From Patescibacteria group bacterium (GTDB lineage Bacteria > Patescibacteriota > Minisyncoccia > Phycocordibacterales > GCA-2747955): DNA of 64,000 bases. Under the pieces are notes generated by a model. The model had not been told where the DNA came from. It searched no databases and worked only from the letters and a program-made list of their open reading frames with translations. Shown piece by piece: positions 1 to 63,746 of this stretch. Each line of letters begins with the position of its first letter. Position 1 is the first letter of the stretch. Position numbers and translations under genes: made by a program. Location: assembly GCA_048538215.1 (NCBI GenBank), contig JBLYPV010000001.1, positions 254,196 to 318,195 of the forward strand, read 5' to 3'.

Positions 1-142
1 ATCGTACAGATGGCGACAACCTTATCACTCATGTGTACTTATTTGTTTAGAAAGTATTTTTTCATTATCTTTTCATGTGTCACATACTTACCATTATCTA
101 TTTCCTTAAAGTGCAACATAAGTGTACACTTTGGTGCAACTA

Positions 143-165
143 TTTAGGGACCGGGTCCCTAAGTG
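143..165. repeat. REP-like 23-nt palindrome (consensus ACTTAGGGACC[G/C]GGTCCCTAAGT), copy 1, overlapping the stop of the 159..554 gene
   Basis: Near-identical palindrome recurs at 29883, 30106 and 30606, flanking a RAYT gene. Confidence 0.8.
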
Positions 166-554
166 GTTTTCTGTTTCTTTTTGAAATCAATCACCGCCTT
201 TTGAGTAATGATTTTGACAATTACATTATTAGTGCTCGGTTGATTGTTGATATCATCCAGCAACATATCTGCCTTTTGGAGATGTACGAATTGCTTGTAA
301 CCATCATGGGTGAAAAATGAGATCAACTGCTCGGTAGTATCCAATAATTCTTCCCTGCCTCCATGGCGCTCGACAAAATCTCCTTGATTGACATACTTGG
401 TGGCAATAGCGGTGCGGAATGATTGATGCTCGGCTTCGTGACCAATCATCTGCTCGACCAGCGCATCCACATCTTCATTGATACTCGCGCGCAACCGAGT
501 AGAAAATTCCACTTCATCCCCTGCTGTAATAATATCTTGATAGCTGTATTTCAT
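159..554 (-). CDS. hypothetical protein (131 aa)
   Basis: Intact ORF; promoter-like TATAAT upstream; no recognisable family. Confidence 0.5.
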   Translation of the reverse strand: MKYSYQDIITAGDEVEFSTRLRASINEDVDALVEQMIGHEAEHQSFRTAIATKYVNQGDFVERHGGREELLDTTEQLISFFTHDGYKQFVHLQKADMLLDDINNQPSTNNVIVKIITQKAVIDFKKKQKTT

Positions 555-9083: not shown

Positions 9084-10727
9084 TTAAGTCATTCCTGCTT
9101 GCTTGAGCGTTTCTTCTGCCATCTTGATAGCTACTTCTTGGGTACTGGCTATACAAATAAAATCACCAGAGCGATGGCAAAATATTGCCCCCTCAATACC
9201 CGACGCTTGCTCCAATGCCTCACCTCGAAGCCCCCACCACTTTCTTGGAAAGCTTAGTCGGCCTCTGAATTTGTAATCAGTTTTGGGCACGGTAGCTACT
9301 CCCCAAGTGGGGGAATCTGTATCCCCTTGTGGAGAAATAATGAGCCGAGTATCTTCAAAGCGAGAAAAATAATCTCGCCCAATCGGCTCTCGCAAAACAA
9401 TCATCTGCTTATCCGCTGCATCCGCATAAGCCCGGCCAGCTTTCCTTCGCTGTTCTACACGGTATTTTGCTTGTTCAACTATACGAGGTAATAGATATTT
9501 TGCCCATTCAACCGCATCATAAAATCTGCTATTTTGTACATAATTATTCCGCTTATCAGAATAATTATAGTATTGTCCAATCACCTCTTGAATGGTGATT
9601 GGACTAATTCCTAAATCATTAAGGTTATATATTTCTTGCCCATTATCTTCCGCATCAATAGCTTGTATAAATTGCTGATCTACCTCATCAACAATGTCTT
9701 GATTATTTTCACATAGTCTAATACCATAATGTTGCCAGATAAGCCCGAGTGAAGCGTAGCCTATTCCATTTGCACGCTCACCTGCTCCAGCAAATTGGTG
9801 ATGATCAAATAAATGATAAGCTGGATCGTAGGCATCACCTATATCAATAAGATAGACCTCCTCTCCTGCTCGTGCTTTTTTGCGGGCAAATTCAATCCGC
9901 TCTTGATTGCGAGTACGGATTACCTTGTACCGCCGTTGTTGTTGCTTGAGTACAAGCTCTAATACTGCTATGGCGAGCACCTCATCGGCATGAAACTTTC
10001 CATCATGGGTATAAATCCACACTGTAGGGCGCAGATAAGCAGAAAAATAAAAAATAAAAAGTGCCGCTAGAATGAGCCCAGCTACAGCAAAGAAGGCGAA
10101 GAGAAGAGCTTCTTCCCCACTCGTAAGCGCCTTGGGCCCAAAAGAAAAAATAAAGGTAAAAGGAATAATACCCAAGGCGGTAGCAAAAAAATATTTTGGG
10201 AAGGATATTTTACTCACCAAGCCCACTGCATAGGAAAGCACATCAGCAGGCACCACAATACGAAGCAATACAAGTACCCAAAAATCCATATTTTTAGGCA
10301 TACGCTCTTCGAGCTTCTCAATTCGCTTGAGTGAGAAAAGCCGTCCTACCAAGGGCTTGCCCCAGCGACGAGCAATCGCATAGGCTATTACCGATCCTAT
10401 AAGCCAGCTTATCCAGGTAGTAATAAAAATGGGCAACGCCCCCATTATCTCTGCCATAAAAGGCACGATGACAGCAATAGAGAGCGGTGCAAAGACTATA
10501 GCAGCTATCGTTGCAAGTGCATAAAGAAAAAGTGAAATCCAGTAGCCATCTACCGATATGATCTGCTGTAGCCACTCAAGTGGATCATTCCAAAAAAGTG
10601 TGGCCATTATGGCTCCTGCGATGACAAAAATTACAGTGTAGGGTAAAACGATACGGGTAAACTGCTTGAGATTCATATAGTGTATTGTACCCGAGAGGAA
10701 TGTAATCACCAACGATACAAGCCTCAA
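9084..10727 (-). CDS. fusion protein: DedA/TVP38-like membrane domain plus MYG1/UPF0160 metal-dependent hydrolase domain
   Basis: N-terminal half multi-TM; C-terminal half contains WIYTHDGKFHADEVLAIAVL... typical of the MYG1 family. Confidence 0.65.
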   Translation of the reverse strand: MRLVSLVITFLSGTIHYMNLKQFTRIVLPYTVIFVIAGAIMATLFWNDPLEWLQQIISVDGYWISLFLYALATIAAIVFAPLSIAVIVPFMAEIMGALPIFITTWISWLIGSVIAYAIARRWGKPLVGRLFSLKRIEKLEERMPKNMDFWVLVLLRIVVPADVLSYAVGLVSKISFPKYFFATALGIIPFTFIFSFGPKALTSGEEALLFAFFAVAGLILAALFIFYFSAYLRPTVWIYTHDGKFHADEVLAIAVLELVLKQQQRRYKVIRTRNQERIEFARKKARAGEEVYLIDIGDAYDPAYHLFDHHQFAGAGERANGIGYASLGLIWQHYGIRLCENNQDIVDEVDQQFIQAIDAEDNGQEIYNLNDLGISPITIQEVIGQYYNYSDKRNNYVQNSRFYDAVEWAKYLLPRIVEQAKYRVEQRRKAGRAYADAADKQMIVLREPIGRDYFSRFEDTRLIISPQGDTDSPTWGVATVPKTDYKFRGRLSFPRKWWGLRGEALEQASGIEGAIFCHRSGDFICIASTQEVAIKMAEETLKQAGMT

Positions 10728-10781
10728 ATAAAATTAGGTATTAATCACTACACGTGTAGTGATTAATACCTAATTTTATTT
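10728..10781. terminator. about 52-bp perfect palindrome (AAAATTAGGTATTAATCACTACACG|TGTAGTGATTAATACCTAATTTT)
   Basis: Perfect dyad with A/T runs on both sides between secA and the downstream gene. Confidence 0.6.
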
Positions 10782-17335: not shown

Positions 17336-17471
17336 AGTCTATATGAATAGCCGAATTAGCTAATTCAGTCAATATCACTACATCAAATGTAGCTAGCTTA
17401 TCACTAAAAAATACGGCTAGCATAGCCGTATTCATAAGATAATTTATCCATTGCTGATATGAGAAAGAGAG

Positions 17472-17543
17472 TCCAACAGGCAGGGATCGAACCTGCGACC
17501 ACGAAGGTATAAGCTTCGCGCTCTACCACTGAGCTACTGTTGG
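17472..17543 (-). tRNA. tRNA with anticodon UAU (putative tRNA-Ile decoding AUA)
   Basis: Perfect cloverleaf CCAACAG/TA/GCTC-AGTGGTA-GAGC/G/CGAAG-CTTATAC-CTTCG/TGGTC/GCAGG-TTCGATC-CCTGC/CTGTTGG/A; anticodon loop CTTATAC puts TAT at positions 34-36. Confidence 0.7.
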
Positions 17544-20613: not shown

Positions 20614-20639
20614 AAGAATATATTGTACCAGGTAAAAAG

Positions 20640-20682
20640 CACGAGCTCGACCCTTGAGGGTCGAGCTCGTGCTTTTTCTTAT
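20640..20682. terminator. bidirectional terminator (GCACGAGCTCGACCC-TTGA-GGGTCGAGCTCGTGC)
   Basis: 15-bp perfect stem flanked by A and T runs. Confidence 0.8.
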
Positions 20683-24306: not shown

Positions 24307-24355
24307 ACCCTAAAAAACAAGCATCGAAGCCAAATGGCTTCGATGCTTGTTTTTA
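24307..24355. terminator. bidirectional terminator (AAAAACAAGCATCGAAGCC-AAAT-GGCTTCGATGCTTGTTTTT)
   Basis: 19-bp perfect stem. Confidence 0.8.
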
Positions 24356-29650: not shown

Positions 29651-29882
29651 ATTTTAAAATTACAGTGTGTTTATCTACCTATACCTATTGGCTACAAAAA
29701 ACAAAGAGTCCGCTCTTTCGAGTGGACTCTTTGCTGGGTATCTTGGGTATATATGAGAAGCTACACAGTAAACAATCCACTCGACTTGGTAAGTAGGAGT
29801 ACCACAAGAATATTGAGTAGATTGTTGTTTGTATGCCTATGCATATACTGAAAATAACATAAAATTATATCCCCCGCAATCA

Positions 29883-29903
29883 CTTAGGGACCGGGTCCCT
29901 AAG
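29883..29903. repeat. REP palindrome copy 2 (CTTAGGGACCGGGTCCCTAAG), 3 nt downstream of RAYT stop
   Basis: Perfect 10-1-10 palindrome identical to the copy at 143. Confidence 0.85.
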
Positions 29904-29905
29904 TG

Positions 29906-30571
29906 TTATTCAATTAGAATGTCTACAAGCTCACTCTTCTGTCTATTATTTCGCTCTCTGTTGCGTGCCTCTATTGTTTCTCCCAATATATCTTGAGAAT
30001 ATGTATCGTATTGTTTACACGAACCTCCTATAAAACTCAAAGCTTCAGCGTGTAAAATATTTAACCCATTCATGGCTTGCCCATTTTTTAACTCTTGGAT
30101 GCTCGACTTAGGGACCGGGTCCCTAAGTTGGTGTACTAGATGATTTTGATGAACATACGCAAGTATTGATGTTAGATAATTTTCATTATCTATATGTTTC
30201 CTCTTAAACCTACCTTGGAACAATGATCCCGACCTATCATACTTAGCATTAAAATAAGCAGAATATCCCCCACCAACTGCTTTCATAAATTTTGATATTC
30301 CATCATCTACCCTTTGTCTTACAACTAAATGAAAATGATTAGGTAATAAATTGTACGCTAATATATCAACTACAGGATCTGATATTTGATTTATTTTATT
30401 AGCAAAGGAAATTGCATATAAACTTTGAATATTCTTTACTGAATTAAAATATTTTAAACCATCTAAAAAACGTAAGTAATCCCCTCTATCTTCAAAAATA
30501 ATCCTCTTGTCGGTTCCTCTATTATATATGTGATAAATCTCACCTGTTTTGCATAAGATATTCTTCCTCAT
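29906..30571 (-). mobile_element. REP-associated tyrosine transposase (RAYT; IS200/IS605-like HuH Y1 transposase)
   Basis: YHIYNRG N-terminal motif, HuH motif NHFHLVV, GRFKRKHIDNENYL...AYVHQNH catalytic-Tyr region; flanked by inverted REP palindromes. Confidence 0.8.
30106..30128. repeat. REP palindrome copy 3, embedded in-frame inside the RAYT coding sequence (encodes HQLRDPVPKS)
   Basis: ACTTAGGGACCGGGTCCCTAAGT identical to the intergenic copies. Confidence 0.8.
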
Positions 30572-30605
30572 ACATCTAATATATTATCATACGTATATTT
30601 TGAAT

Positions 30606-30628
30606 TACTTAGGGACCCGGTCCCTAAG
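30606..30628. repeat. REP palindrome copy 4, inverted orientation (central C instead of G), 35 nt upstream of RAYT start
   Basis: ACTTAGGGACCCGGTCCCTAAGT. Confidence 0.85.
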
Positions 30629-30632
30629 TGGT

Positions 30633-36385: not shown

Positions 36386-36440
36386 ACACTATAGATTCCT
36401 CTCAGGCAGTCCCTGCGGGACTGCCTGAGAGGAATCTAGA
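36386..36440. terminator. second, 21-bp perfect hairpin (TAGATTCCTCTCAGGCAGTCCC-TGC-GGGACTGCCTGAGAGGAATCTA)
   Basis: Perfect long dyad between pilin gene end and ribosomal operon start. Confidence 0.7.
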
Positions 36441-58889: not shown

Positions 58890-58928
58890 ATAAAAATCTC
58901 AAGAGCAATATCCCTCTTGAGGTTTCTA

Positions 58929-59163
58929 GTGTGTTTATTGTACCAAGCTCGAACCTATTTCCAATCCAAACACTAGCAACGCGCGGAGCACACAGTGGCT
59001 TTGTATTTCACCGTACGCGTTGGAGTTTATCTCAATGCTACTCAGCGCCTCGGGGCGCTCGGTTCCTCGCGCAGCAATTCCCAAAATTTTCTTGCCTTAA
59101 AGAAAAAGCGAAAGGGGGTGTGGGGGAAGTCGCCAAAAAGTTGAAAGAAAATTTTGGGGTTGC
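58929..59163. repeat. IR-A: left arm of about 235-bp perfect inverted repeat (partner 61153..61389)
   Basis: Reverse complement of 61153..61389 is identical over about 235 bp; GC-rich relative to surroundings. Confidence 0.9.
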
Positions 59164-59431
59164 TTTTGCCTTCCAGTCTTCCAAAAATTCTTCACAAAGC
59201 CCTTTTAAGAAGTAGGGGCTTTGTTCATCACTTTCTCCAGACTGGTGGCACCCGAGGCGCTCTCGTATACAAAGCTCGTGGTAGTTTTATACACGCTCAC
59301 ACCCCACCACCTCGCATTGGCCGCTCACTTCGTTCGCGTGGCCTGCTCTGTGGTGGGGTGCTCGCGCAGGGGGCTTCGTTTGAGTTTGTGGTATTTAAAG
59401 GTTCACGCTTCGCGCAAACCATTGAAAAATA

Positions 59432-60739
59432 TTATTTCTCCAAATCCTCTAAGTCTTGATCTAAGATTCCAAGCTGGGTCAGTAGAGCAATATGTTCGCT
59501 ATTGTTAGGGTCGTATTTCCCAATCGTAAAGGTTTCGACAACCTCACTGTTTTCTGATGCTAAAGTCCAGATTGCTCGATTACCAAAATATGACATATCT
59601 TTGGGATAAACAGCGCCCGGAGTTTTGCATGTTGTGCCTCTGAAAATACGCACACAATCATTGTAGGCAGTTGTAGCAGCTGCTTCTGGCGTGACGTCTT
59701 TTTTGGGTGATGCAAGTAGCCGATAGTCAGACATAATTTCATGAGTACGTCTGAAATCTAGTTTTTCACCAGTTATACCTTTTGCCAATGCTATGGAAAA
59801 AAATCTTGGGACTCCAGCAAATTCTTTCGCCCCAGTGACCTGTTGCTCATTGTATGTGGCTATTCCTTCTTCGGCTTTTAGATATCTATCTAAACCGAGT
59901 CCAAGCAACTGCAAACGAGAACGCTCACCATTACTTCGTCTTGCAACATGAGTTTTAATCTCGTGTTCAATCAATCCTTTCAACTTCTTTTTACTAATAT
60001 TTCTAGCAAGCAGTTTGTCTTCAGCTGGAACACGAACGACTTTATGTTCTTGACTGACGCTAAAATTCGAGATGCCTGATTCAGTATCGACAACAACTTT
60101 CCAGTCGGTTGCGTCAATTTCCTGTAACGCTTCTTCAAACGCAGCCACTGCTTCATCTACTGATTCTAGCTTTCCTGAAATATCCTCGCCCTCGGGCAAA
60201 ATTGATTTGTCAGCACCTTGACCAGCTGGTAGTGATACTTCGCTGAAAACTGCATGCAACTTTTGAGCCGCAGCTGCTTTATTAGCGTCTTCAGACGCTA
60301 AGTTAGCTTGAACCAATTCTTTTACATGTTCAAGTACATACCCAATGTCAGCAATTTCTGGCGTGCCATAGATAAAATCTGCATAGCGAGAAAACATTTT
60401 ATCGTTGCCCTCTCGTGCCGCTTTTAGCATCCGTAATGTAGCAAGAGATTCATTGATTTTTGTGCGGTATATTTTTTTTACGGCATCGTTTTTCTCTAGC
60501 TCTAAAACATCTTCTTTCAGAGCGAGTAAGGCGTGTTCTCTCTCTTCAAGATTGAAAGATTCTAATTCGGGGTAATCAAGAGTTGGGTTGTCAACTTCAC
60601 CATTCAAAAATTTCCCTTTTTCCGCTTCGCGCACCTCTTTTTTACCTGTAAGTTTTTCGTAATCTTCAAAAGCAACTTCTTCAAAACGCTTATACCAGCG
60701 ACTATCAAGCTTTTCTTCATGTGACTGTATTTTTTCCAC
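59432..60739 (-). CDS. DUF1704-family (QEGLA-motif) HExxH metallopeptidase-like protein
   Basis: HEIKTH zinc motif and EEGIATYNEQ (QEGLA-like) region. Confidence 0.6.
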   Translation of the reverse strand: MEKIQSHEEKLDSRWYKRFEEVAFEDYEKLTGKKEVREAEKGKFLNGEVDNPTLDYPELESFNLEEREHALLALKEDVLELEKNDAVKKIYRTKINESLATLRMLKAAREGNDKMFSRYADFIYGTPEIADIGYVLEHVKELVQANLASEDANKAAAAQKLHAVFSEVSLPAGQGADKSILPEGEDISGKLESVDEAVAAFEEALQEIDATDWKVVVDTESGISNFSVSQEHKVVRVPAEDKLLARNISKKKLKGLIEHEIKTHVARRSNGERSRLQLLGLGLDRYLKAEEGIATYNEQQVTGAKEFAGVPRFFSIALAKGITGEKLDFRRTHEIMSDYRLLASPKKDVTPEAAATTAYNDCVRIFRGTTCKTPGAVYPKDMSYFGNRAIWTLASENSEVVETFTIGKYDPNNSEHIALLTQLGILDQDLEDLEK

Positions 60740-61139: not shown

Positions 61140-61152
61140 CTGATTGAATTAG

Positions 61153-61389
61153 CAACCCCAAAATTTTCTTTCAACTTTTTGGCGACTTCCCCCACACCCC
61201 CTTTCGCTTTTTCTTTAAGGCAAGAAAATTTTGGGAATTGCTGCGCGAGGAACCGAGCGCCCCGAGGCGCTGAGTAGCATTGAGATAAACTCCAACGCGT
61301 ACGGTGAAATACAAAGCCACTGTGTGCTCCGCGCGTTGCTAGTGTTTGGATTGGAAATAGGTTCGAGCTTGGTACAATAAACACACCAG
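61153..61389. repeat. IR-A': right arm of the 235-bp inverted repeat
   Basis: See IR-A. Confidence 0.9.
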
Positions 61390-61521
61390 AATAGAACTTT
61401 CGGGTTCTAAACCAACTTTGGCATGGGCGGCGCGTAGCGCCGCCCATGCCGTTGGCGGCTCTGTGGAGCCACCAACCGAGGACGAGACAACCACGCGACG
61501 GCCGCTGAGGCGGAGGTGCGA
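61384..61521. repeat. IR-B: left arm of 138-bp perfect inverted repeat (partner 63087..63224); contains a 14-bp perfect GC hairpin
   Basis: Reverse complement identical to 63087..63224; directly abuts IR-A'. Confidence 0.9.
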
Positions 61522-61697: not shown

Positions 61698-63272
61698 ATG
61701 AAAGAAAAATTCTTTTTGTACGCTCGCAAGTCCACTGATGTCGAGGATAAGCAGGTGATGTCAATTGATGCTCAGTTGGTGGAATTGCGTACATTTGCCC
61801 GTGAGCAAGGGCTAGAGATTGTTGAAGAGTTTGTCGAAAAACAGTCAGCCAAAAAGCTAGGCCGTCCTATCTTTGGGCAAATGCTCTCGCGCATCGAGCA
61901 AGGTGAAGCGTCCGGTATAGTCTCCTGGGCGCCAGACCGTTTAGCTCGTAACTCCGTTGACGGTGGGCAGATTATCCACCTCCTCGACACGTGTGTTCTT
62001 GCGAGTCTCAAGTTCCCGACCTTTTGGTGTGACAACACTTCACAAGGAAAGTTTATGTTGAGCATGGCGTTCGGGCAAAGCAAATACTATGTTGATTCTC
62101 TTTCCGAGAATACGAAACGTGGGCTCAGGCAAAAAGTCCGCTTGGGGCATTGTCCAAGCAAAGCTCCAATCGGATATATCAATGACGTTCGGACTAAAAC
62201 CATCGTTCCAGACAAGAAGCGTGCTCCGATTATTAAAAGAGTGTTTGAGTTATACGCAGTTGGAGACATGCGGCTAGAAGATGTGGCGGACTTTTTCGCC
62301 CAGCACCACGTTACCACCCGTACCGGCAAGAGAATCTCCAAGACTAGAGCGTCTTTTATCCTCTCCAATCCTTTTTATGTTGGATTGTTTAAGTACGGCG
62401 GCGAAGTATATGAAGGCAAGCATGAGCCAATCATCGCAAAGCCACTGTTTGATGAAGCGCAGGCGGTACTCAAAAAGAGAGGTCAGCCAGACCGCAAACC
62501 CAAGAATGAACCGCAACCATACTGCGGACTAATAACCTGCGCTTCCTGCGGGATGATGATAACGGCCGAGAACAAAACGAAGCGACAGAAGAATGGAAAT
62601 ACACACCACTACGTGTATTATCGCTGTACCAAGAAACACAAGAATATTCATTGCCAAGAGAAGTCGCTTCGTTCTGAAGTTCTCGACTCCCAGTTATCAT
62701 CCCTTATCAAAGCAGTGGCTTTGCCCACCGACTGGGCAACCAAACTCAATCAAATGGCTAAAGATGAACACGCACAGTCTAGCCAGTCGGTGTCACAGCT
62801 CGTGAAAGAGAGGCGGCAAGAAATACAAAACAATACTATTAAACTAGACCGCCTTTTAACTGGATATCTAGAGCAAGTTATAGACGAGTTAGATTATCGA
62901 AAAGAAAAAGCCAAGTTACTATCCGAAAAGAAGAGTCTGGAGTCTGAAATAGCTTCTCTTTCACACGCTGTGAATGATTGGCTCGCACCTTTCCAAGACT
63001 GGCTAAAAGACGCTCAGAACTTGGACGAAATCGCTTCTGATTGCAACCTTTTTACGAGAAAGGTTGCCGCCAAAGAAATCTTTGGCTCGCACCTCCGCCT
63101 CAGCGGCCGTCGCGTGGTTGTCTCGTCCTCGGTTGGTGGCTCCACAGAGCCGCCAACGGCATGGGCGGCGCTACGCGCCGCCCATGCCAAAGTTGGTTTA
63201 GAACCCGAAAGTTCTATTCTGGTGCCCAGGGCGGGAATCGAACCCGCACCGCCATTGGCGACAAGATTTTAA
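61698..63272 (+). mobile_element. large serine recombinase (resolvase catalytic domain, recombinase domain, zinc ribbon, coiled-coil); reading frame runs into IR-B' and tRNA-Leu
   Basis: YARKSTD catalytic-Ser region, CGLITCASCG...YYRCTKKHKNIHC zinc ribbon, C-terminal coiled-coil; last about 60 codons lie inside the inverted repeat. Confidence 0.85.
63087..63224. repeat. IR-B': right arm of 138-bp inverted repeat, ending at the 3' CCA end of tRNA-Leu
   Basis: See IR-B. Confidence 0.9.
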
Positions 63273-63620: not shown

Positions 63621-63693
63621 CCCCTTGTAGCTCAGTTGGTAGAGCAGCAGCCTCTTAAGCTGACGGTCCTAGGTTCGAATCCTAGCGGGGGGA
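63621..63693 (+). tRNA. tRNA-Lys (anticodon CUU)
   Basis: TAGCTCAGTTGGTAGAGC D-arm, anticodon loop CTCTTAA, GGTTCGAATCC T-arm; acceptor stem has two G-U pairs. Confidence 0.7.
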
Positions 63694-63696
63694 CTC

Positions 63697-63746
63697 AAAA
63701 TAAAACTCAGGAGCTAAGCTCCTGAGTTTTATTTTGAGTCCCCCTT
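63697..63746. terminator. bidirectional terminator (AAAATAAAACTCAGGAGCT-AAGC-TCCTGAGTTTTATTTT)
   Basis: 19-bp perfect stem between tRNA-Lys and a convergent gene. Confidence 0.85.

Follow-up and report, generated by a model that had tools for sequence, protein, structure and literature searches.

The Y1 gene and its palindromes

The DNA considered here, hereafter the window, is a stretch of 64,000 nucleotides (nt) from a Patescibacteria group bacterium (assembly GCA_048538215.1, contig JBLYPV010000001.1, positions 254,196 to 318,195). In it, a gene for a Y1 HUH endonuclease or transposase-like protein of 221 amino acids (aa) is accompanied by copies of a 23-nt palindrome, ACTTAGGGACC(G/C)GGTCCCTAAGT, one of which is read through in frame within the gene itself (Table 1). 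The gene follows secY, adk and map (methionine aminopeptidase) in order, and its immediate neighbours are map and a 114-aa open reading frame (ORF) of unknown kind, with no tnpB. An earlier interpretation made from the letters alone (the sequence-only reading) had taken this arrangement for a module of repetitive extragenic palindromic (REP) sequences and a REP-associated tyrosine transposase (RAYT). We describe the locus and 80 related loci, and argue that gene and hairpin probably form a REPtron-like unit.

The protein carries the motifs YHIYNRG (residues 13–19), HFHLVV (79–84) and AYVHQNH (138–144), matches the Pfam family Y1_Tnp (PF01797; E 1.9e-8, 34.9 bits against a cutoff of 23), and is identical in sequence to a protein that NCBI lists, for a contig of 622,806 bp, under the name 'MAG: transposase [Patescibacteria group bacterium]'. 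Among 120 homologues the two histidines of the HUH motif (H79 and H81), the catalytic Tyr (Y139) and N143, likely the third metal ligand, are invariant, which gives the protein the HUH motif, single Tyr and polar ligand four residues on that characterize the HUH Y1 superfamily. An AlphaFold model built from the same 120 homologues, with a predicted local distance difference test (pLDDT) value of 91.5, shows the Y1 fold, in which a beta-sheet bears the HUH motif and the Tyr lies on helix alpha-D. The best PDB match of this model by Foldseek is Escherichia coli TnpAREP bound to its REP (4er8, E 1.5e-6), with ISDra2 and IS608 TnpA ranking after it; the top matches 4er8, 2xma, 2a6m and 2vjv each have a probability of 1.00. 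By sequence alone, PDB matches were marginal.

Three exact copies of the palindrome lie around and inside the gene (the downstream one at 29882–29904 in its 23-nt form), and a fourth copy, with one mismatch, lies at the beginning of the window. Chance would be expected to supply none of them (none in 100 shuffles), and no other repeated palindrome family occurs in the window except one pair inside a larger inverted repeat. The hairpin of the window gene, written out, is ACTTAGGGACCSGGTCCCTAAGT, and the orientation of a copy is set by its central base only (on the plus strand, G at 29893, 30117 and 153, and C at 30618). Folded as single-stranded DNA, the copies associated with the gene give stems of 10–11 bp with a 3-nt loop (−8.9 to −11 kcal/mol, z −4.3 to −6.9), and the mismatched copy into a stem of 8 bp (−6.1 kcal/mol, z −2.6).

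All extragenic copies in the window sit at the 3′ ends of minus-strand genes. The downstream copy is separated from the TAA stop of the Y1 gene by 1 nt in its 23-nt form, or by 0 nt if it is taken in its 25-nt form (CACTT...AAGTG), and the mismatched copy provides ACT-TAG, the final Thr codon and the stop of its host ORF. Within the Y1 gene the codons of the internal copy are CAC CAA CTT AGG GAC CCG GTC CCT AAG TCG, giving H-Q-L-R-D-P-V-P-K-S; in the AlphaFold model the linker encoded there (QLRDPVPKS, about residues 147–156) is predicted to be coil, running from the catalytic-Tyr helix to the next helix and the SS motif. The sequence-only reading had recognized the HuH Y1 protein with its three motifs, the flanking palindromes with the upstream copy 35 nt before the start, and the third copy read in frame as HQLRDPVPKS, all of which agree with what we find, the protein being further supported by its Pfam family and by a fold closest to TnpAREP. 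It had placed the downstream copy 3 nt after the stop, which is too far, and the fourth copy at 143–165; the latter is indeed a dispersed copy on the stop codon of an unrelated gene, shifted by one position from that placing and imperfect.

Table 1. Coordinates of the Y1 gene, the palindrome copies and the candidate promoter element in the window.
Feature	Position	Strand	Remarks
Y1 HUH endonuclease / transposase-like gene, 221 aa	29906..30571	-	ORF and translation, Pfam, AlphaFold, fold match
Upstream palindrome copy	30607..30629		Centre C on plus strand; 3 nt past the map stop and 35 nt before the Y1 ATG (gap 30572–30606)
In-frame internal copy (site B)	30106..30128		Centre 14 codons past the catalytic Tyr
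Downstream copy, 25-nt form CACTTAGGGACCGGGTCCCTAAGTG	29881..29905		Abuts the TAA stop (29906–29908)
Dispersed copy with one mismatch (ATTT for ACTT)	142..164		Ends the unrelated ORF 159–554 (-)
Putative extended −10 box TGATAATAT	30581..30589	-	9 nt before the ATG; read from sequence

Hairpins at four fixed positions among relatives

We compared 81 loci, namely that of the window and 80 from GTDB genomes, nearly all of them labelled Patescibacteria or a lineage thereof (individual loci bear L numbers), counting perfect palindromes whose stem is 9 bp or longer and taking the gene plus or minus 100 nt as the gene zone. Palindromes are about nine times denser in the gene zone than in the flanks (2.45 against 0.28 per kb), and they occupy four fixed positions: upstream, where 49 of the 81 loci have one 9–58 nt (mostly 9–38) ahead of the start; site A, filled in 34 loci, 14–32 codons (mostly 14–24) ahead of the HUH motif; site B, filled in 30 loci, of which 22 have the centre exactly 14 codons past the catalytic Tyr; and downstream, where 47 loci have one between −6 and +46 nt relative to the stop, mostly no more than 34 nt away. 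The in-frame sites A and B are filled in 51/81 loci, each time with a hairpin specific to the locus.

This specificity is pronounced. The inner arm is common to 125 of the 203 palindrome pairs within loci, as against 3.1% between loci, and 64 distinct arms were found in all; in loci with at least one external copy, 50 of the 60 internal copies have an arm identical to an external one. A gene flanked by a palindrome specific to it is seen in the window, in relatives and in a paralogue in the source genome (see below), each with its own hairpin. The palindromes could be dismissed neither as restriction sites nor as assembly artefacts, since many independent assemblies show this pattern with arms that differ by locus. 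In the four non-Patescibacteria relatives examined, no perfect palindrome of at least 8 bp was found inside the gene.

The loops of upstream and downstream copies are either identical or exact reverse complements of each other, the direct arrangement being found in 17 loci and the inverted one in 13. Inverted orientation, which the sequence-only reading had regarded as part of the defining arrangement, is therefore no defining trait of these loci, and we discarded the orientation of the flanking copies as an informative signal since it follows no consistent pattern. The pattern fits loop flipping between the arms, a process familiar from small hairpin inversions.

Several loci depart from the simple layout. 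Head-to-head doublets of hairpins, 34–46 nt long and REPIN-like, occur in frame at site A in L045, L059, L071, L080 and L052, and doublets like them lie past the stop in L045, L010, L017, L037 and L067. Two hairpin species occur within one gene in L064, L031, L032 and L003; in L064 they are interleaved, such that the upstream copy matches site B and site A matches the downstream copy. Such genes could reflect module exchange between paralogues or colonization by a second hairpin family.

The hairpin, not the peptide, is conserved at the in-frame site

An alignment of 33 site-B segments, selected solely by the pattern His-x-CTT, was used to examine covariation. Pairing is kept in 82% of the cells of this alignment, and the covariation score of 0.414 exceeds that of shuffled alignments (0.195; 0/500 reach 0.414) and of partner columns that were slid out of register (0.06–0.15), with two-sided base changes at all seven of the seven inner pairs. 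A single frame, in which CTT is read as Leu and AAG as Lys, is shared by 41/43 internal hairpins of the ACTT[AG]G type, though at least two frames are open to them. Since the peptide varies freely and the pairing is kept, what is conserved is the hairpin as nucleic acid, along with its place and frame, and not the peptide; the idea that the palindrome is merely a conserved peptide-coding stretch was rejected on the same grounds. Peptides such as QLGxxxxKLV inside these proteins are accordingly hairpin read-through and not a protein motif.

The position of site B has a counterpart in classical RAYTs. Where the hairpin is lacking, the segment reads HDIGKASDYPWSSY, including DYPWSS (L058), ENYPWSNY with NYPWSN (L071), HNLGKTENWPWASY, including NWPWAS (L080), or SWPYSS (L048), and plasmid-borne relatives outside the Patescibacteria have NPVRAGMVEQPSDYVWSSY at this position, with DYVWSS and YEWSS. 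Judging from these aligned segments, the hairpin peptide takes the place of the classical (D/N)(Y/W)PW segment. Region lengths with and without a perfect palindrome are nearly equal, being 21 aa against 19 aa from Tyr to SS (site B) and 71 aa against 68 aa at site A, and we therefore rejected the view that the hairpins are pure insertions. We likewise rejected site B as a natural truncation point, as short homologues (164–197 aa) end elsewhere.

In at least 10 loci the stem reaches 13–19 bp and extends into the conserved VH-QL codons, which results in a mirrored peptide, K-L-V, because CACCAACTT is the reverse complement of AAGTTGGTG (CAC CAA CTT against AAG TTG GTG). At site B this peptide is seen in L054, L041, L031, L046, L011, L040, L072, L064, L008 and L005. 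The mirrored extension is a signature of palindrome growth at the level of DNA.

These comparisons also bear on how the sequence-only reading had viewed the internal copy. Its placing of the REP-encoded peptide where RAYTs normally carry DWPWSS holds, as the relatives just named keep a (D/N)(Y/W)PW-SS segment there. Its suggestion of an unusual self-insertion does not, the in-frame sites being so widely filled with locus-specific hairpins. It had named as a result that would speak against it the finding that the internal palindrome is an ancestral feature of homologues; with the in-frame sites filled in 51/81 loci, this is so for position and frame, and not for sequence.

Inheritance, paralogues and dispersal

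The source genome contains a second such gene, L001, whose product is 53% identical to the window protein; we took it to lie on the same contig as the window gene, and examined its locus on a 7.8-kb Logan contig. Its palindrome, ACTTGGACGCCGGGCGTCCAAGT, occurs ahead of the start, past the stop and, with one mismatch, in frame behind the Tyr, so that the two paralogues carry different arms at the same places (ACTTAGGGACC in the window gene, ACTTGGACGCC in L001). Four more genomes with two loci each likewise have a different hairpin for each gene (L004/L040, L019/L057, L011/L072 and L025/L026).

Gene and flanks are syntenic at 70–85% nucleotide identity in six pairs of loci (L055/L075, L047/L073, L010/L017, L009/L038, L005/L024 and L053/L057), which speaks for vertical descent and against an active insertion sequence. 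Together with the two diverged paralogues of the source genome, these syntenic orthologues show the low copy number and vertical descent expected of a RAYT. The orthologues L055 and L075 have retained the same hairpin, and between other relatives a base of the arm is altered at all copies together (GGGGGTC in L005 and GGGTGTC in L024; likewise L040 and L046). A rough tree places the loci rich in hairpins in one large central group, within which sites A and B are filled patchily and many imperfect remnants occur; basal groups of the YIHLNP and HNIP types are mostly without hairpins.

Dispersed copies in relatives lie mostly 2–26 nt past the stop codons of unrelated genes. Two of them, in L077 (263–283) and L052 (7262–7298), fall within long ORFs (677 aa and 248 aa, respectively); in-frame carriage is thus not confined to the Y1 gene. 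Exact-match scans with TTAGGGACCSGGTCCCTAA found no match in GTDB species genomes or JGI metagenomes.

A hairpin at the putative promoter, and RNA versus DNA

The position of the putative −10 box (Table 1), as read from the DNA, suggests a leaderless or near-leaderless mRNA, and the string ATGATAATAT of the window recurs ahead of the paralogue L001. Among the loci, a match of at least 5/6 to TATAAT stands at the 3′ edge of 44% of upstream hairpins, as compared with 6% of downstream hairpins and 7% of random positions; the end of this −10-like box is 6–9 nt from the ATG in most loci, and 16/36 loci have the foot ACTTGG placed such that its TTG is 17 nt upstream of the box. These spacings point to a promoter in the relatives with its −35 and spacer inside the palindrome, which would drive a leaderless mRNA. 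A simple scan for sigma-70 promoters and terminators returned no promoter at the expected place and no terminator at the hairpins.

Several features fit, without proving, an element that acts at the level of DNA. No T-tracts follow the stems, a search of Rfam returned tRNAs only and no family for the hairpin, and in imperfect stems the sense-strand mismatches are G-T in 38 cases and A-C in 30, without asymmetry.

A probable REPtron-like unit and competing explanations

We read the locus as a REPtron-like unit whose hairpin copies evolve in concert and which probably regulates itself through the copy at its promoter, and we put the probability of this reading at about 0.62. The unit would consist of a low-copy, vertically inherited Y1 HUH enzyme gene and a private DNA hairpin. 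From homology with TnpAREP and IS608 TnpA, we would expect single-stranded DNA to be the form in which the enzyme binds the hairpin, at whose foot it would cut and rejoin DNA. The hairpin would have its seat at gene 3′ ends (after map, after the Y1 gene and after ORF 159–554), and, as it follows map, it would also stand just upstream of the Y1 promoter. The in-frame copy, lying in a surface linker of the enzyme in place of the ancestral (D/N)(Y/W)PW segment, would be tolerated because that linker accepts almost any peptide; fixed in position and frame, it is an old trait of a clade of 2.1-like Y1 genes that spans the Patescibacteria, and no recent accident. All copies in and around one gene would change in concert, likely by enzyme-mediated replacement of hairpins, short-tract gene conversion, and intrastrand template switching that perfects and extends palindromes. 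Extrusion of the hairpin, or binding of the enzyme, at the promoter copy would probably restrain the expression of the gene.

A number of observations weigh on the other side. The hairpin foot is (C)CACTT...AAGTG(G), with no unpaired 5′ GTAG or GTGG, so the canonical GT[AG]G guide is missing. The protein scores below the cutoff of the curated NCBIfam RAYT model REP_Tyr_transpos (NF047646; 37.3 bits against 80), and its YVHQNH, like the clade consensus YVNxN(x), is a class-2 Y---NP signature without the Pro; YIHLNP is kept by a few basal relatives (L049, L060 and L081). The REP/RAYT label of the sequence-only reading thus fits in kind, but the locus departs from canonical RAYT/REP systems in three of their defining features: the hairpin head, GT[AG]G; the score in the curated model; and the Y---NP signature. 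Dispersed copies are few in the DNA scanned (one extra in the 64-kb window and 17 with the same arm in 790 kb of the relatives' flanks), so that REP-like proliferation appears weak. In the window the upstream hairpin lies 20 nt from the putative −10 box and holds no −35, which makes the promoter argument weaker there than in the relatives. Hairpin binding and cutting by the window protein are predicted from homology, and internal stems that extend past the common core could themselves be under selection, rather than passengers.

If they are selected, the internal hairpins may be cis-acting self-targets, at which, as at the promoter copy, binding or cutting throttles expression or rearranges the gene, in one variant by removing the C-terminal part. 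That part is autoinhibitory in E. coli TnpAREP, which becomes hyperactive once its tail is truncated (Messing et al., 2012; PMC3479197). The conservation of position and frame over a deep clade would follow naturally, as would the copy-specific extension of internal stems past the common core, up to 19 bp and through neighbouring codons, the covariation of pairs 4-36 and 5-35, and the location of site B, which in the model falls exactly between the catalytic helix and the C-terminal tail. Yet the gene is intact in many close relatives that have only one internal copy or none, template switching could lengthen stems without selection, short homologues do not stop at site B, and no deletion or rearranged variants were seen. 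On balance we consider selected self-targets unlikely, though they are the main rival to our reading.

Going a step further, the gene might be a substrate of its own product through its in-frame and promoter hairpins, or the hairpins might have been born from its H-x-L-G codons, a pair of ideas that we hold to be rather doubtful. In the first, binding or cutting of the hairpins may control expression or rearrange the gene in a self-addressed circuit. In the second, the hairpin would possibly have originated by palindrome growth from the conserved codons CAY NNA CTT GGN, and later have been copied to the flanks and to other 3′ ends. If either were true, a REP family would have been born from, and be held in register with, the coding sequence of its own enzyme, and the 64 enzyme–hairpin pairs found in nature would make a readable specificity series.

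It is improbable that the gene is an autonomous IS200-like insertion sequence (IS) that moves as a whole by peel-and-paste, with the flanking palindromes as its end hairpins. The general build, one Y1 gene of about 700 bp between subterminal hairpins and a fold resembling those of IS608 and ISDra2 TnpA, is what such an element would have. However, the metal-ligand position holds N and not the Q of the class-1 signature Y---Q, the NCBIfam IS200 model gives 12 bits against a cutoff of 55, and tnpB is lacking. Nor do the copies behave like those of a mobile element: the two in the genome are 53% identical and have different hairpins, near-identical copies were not found, and orthologues are syntenic at the 70–85% nucleotide identity given above. 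Moreover, the same perfect palindrome stands at both ends, and the hairpin is also found by itself at the 3′ ends of other genes.

Finally, a role at the level of RNA (as terminator, mRNA stabilizer or translation attenuator) or as the operator of an unrelated dimeric protein, with the link to the Y1 gene incidental, would suit the 3′-end location of all extragenic window copies on minus-strand genes and has a parallel in E. coli REPs that stabilize 3′ ends and terminate transcription (reviewed in Quentin et al., 2018; PMC6006769), but it is very improbable given the missing T-tracts, G-T mismatches hardly above A-C, the absence of an Rfam match, the roughly ninefold concentration of palindromes at the gene, and hairpins that are specific to each Y1 gene copy and change along with it, even between paralogues of one genome.

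Other features of the window

Towards the end of the window, perfect inverted repeats of 241 nt (58924–59164 and 61151–61391) surround a gene for a 435-aa MATCAP-type peptidase (59432–60739, minus strand), and adjacent to them perfect inverted repeats of 138 nt (61384–61521 and 63087–63224) surround a gene for a large serine recombinase (61698–63272, plus strand), the 3′ end of which overlaps tRNA-Leu, beside tRNA-Cys and tRNA-Lys. These two adjacent repeat pairs could mark an integrated element or a pair of segments able to invert. At 17471–17543 (minus strand) the window encodes a tRNA-Ile whose anticodon is TAT (UAU), the rarer bacterial route for reading AUA.

Long unique perfect palindromes with stems of 20–28 bp occur at 10726–10781, 63688–63744, 36392–36438, 20634–20677 and 24313–24354. 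Several of them have an A-run ahead of the stem and a T-run behind it and resemble bidirectional terminators; they do not belong to the REP-like family.

Comparison with known systems

With the TnpA proteins of the IS200/IS605 group (IS200, IS608, ISDra2) the window protein shares the Y1 HUH fold and, presumably, the recognition of subterminal hairpins on single-stranded DNA, and IS200 is likewise a single-gene element of about 700 bp. Those elements differ in their Y---Q motif, obligate dimers, imperfect and distinct left and right hairpins, many near-identical copies and, often, a tnpB. In annotation, genes such as the one in the window should not carry the label of an IS200 transposase.

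Palindromic repeats in frame within protein genes are also known from Rickettsia palindromic elements (RPEs) and from REPs inside other genes (Di Nocera et al., 2013; PMC3733652), where they are tolerated in surface regions. RPEs are 100–150 bp long, enter many unrelated genes and have no dedicated enzyme, whereas the clade of the window has hairpins of 23–45 nt at fixed sites in the gene of what is presumably their own enzyme.

E. coli TnpAREP (RAYT group 2, TnpAY1 subclass 2.2; 4er8), the best structural match, has the HUH motif, the Tyr and an Asn four residues on, is flanked by hairpins of its own at low copy number of the gene, and has a C-terminal extension past the Tyr helix. It is 14% identical to the window protein and has an intact DWP.SS motif, which is replaced in the window; its REPs are imperfect, bear a 5′ GTAG, number in the hundreds and do not occur inside the gene.

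By its motifs, the window protein best fits a RAYT-like protein akin to TnpAY1 subclass 2.1, and not 2.4 or 1.1. NH[YF]H (here NHFH), FQ, the SS after the Tyr and a length of about 220–240 aa are those of subclass 2.1, or TIRYT (a tyrosine transposase found with terminal inverted repeats; Bertels group 1), and the Y motif, YV(H/N)xN, matches partly; plasmid-borne relatives (YIELNP...DYVWSS) are 25–31% identical to the window protein. Subclass 2.1 is reported with terminal inverted repeats only and a C-terminal helix-turn-helix (HTH) domain, and no REP-like sequences were found near its genes (Quentin et al., 2018; PMC6006769); the window gene, in contrast, is flanked and entered by perfect hairpins, and Pfam finds no HTH domain in its product. 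One relative outside the Patescibacteria, on a plasmid of Iodobacter fluviatilis (L083, 28% identity), does have an identical palindrome, GTGTAGCAAGTTGCTACAC, on both sides (1000–1018 and 2153–2171), and this contains GTAG and CTAC feet, despite the reported lack of REP-like flanks in genes of the 2.1 type.

The closest precedent for the in-frame copy is TnpAY1 subclass 2.4, in which Quentin, Siguier, Chandler and Fichant (2018; PMC6006769) described in-frame REPs inside tnpAREP. In these REPtrons (Bertels group 4; Cyanobacteria and Bacteroidetes), too, the gene has cognate REPs on its flanks as well as within, the latter keeping the reading frame intact and falling in peripheral, variable regions of the protein. 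Their REPs are long and have GT[AG]G feet, and the motifs of their proteins are WQ and YIxNNP; the window clade has FQ and YV(N/H)xN, hairpins without GTAG, and Patescibacteria as hosts. The window protein does contain NHFH, but with FQ and YVHQNH, and its hairpins do not lie between HUH and Tyr; across the clade one site precedes the HUH motif and the other lies 14 codons past the Tyr, where the WPW segment is replaced. Internal copies are not mentioned in the searched passages of Bertels et al. (2017; PMC5581495), and our literature search returned no paper connecting RAYT or TnpAREP with Patescibacteria, whose small genomes offer little space for repeats.

Together these comparisons touch on what RAYT-type enzymes do for their hosts and on how enzyme and hairpin change specificity jointly. 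The clade provides many natural replicates for such questions, with 64 hairpin arms each accompanied by its own enzyme, at most four copies per gene and concerted change among them, and the hairpin at the promoter suggests a simple, testable form of self-regulation. An in-frame REP inside the gene of its enzyme has been known in kind since 2018, and the present case differs by subclass, sites and hosts: the trait then called 'unique to subclass 2.4' is also present, and more regular, in another subclass and in Patescibacteria.

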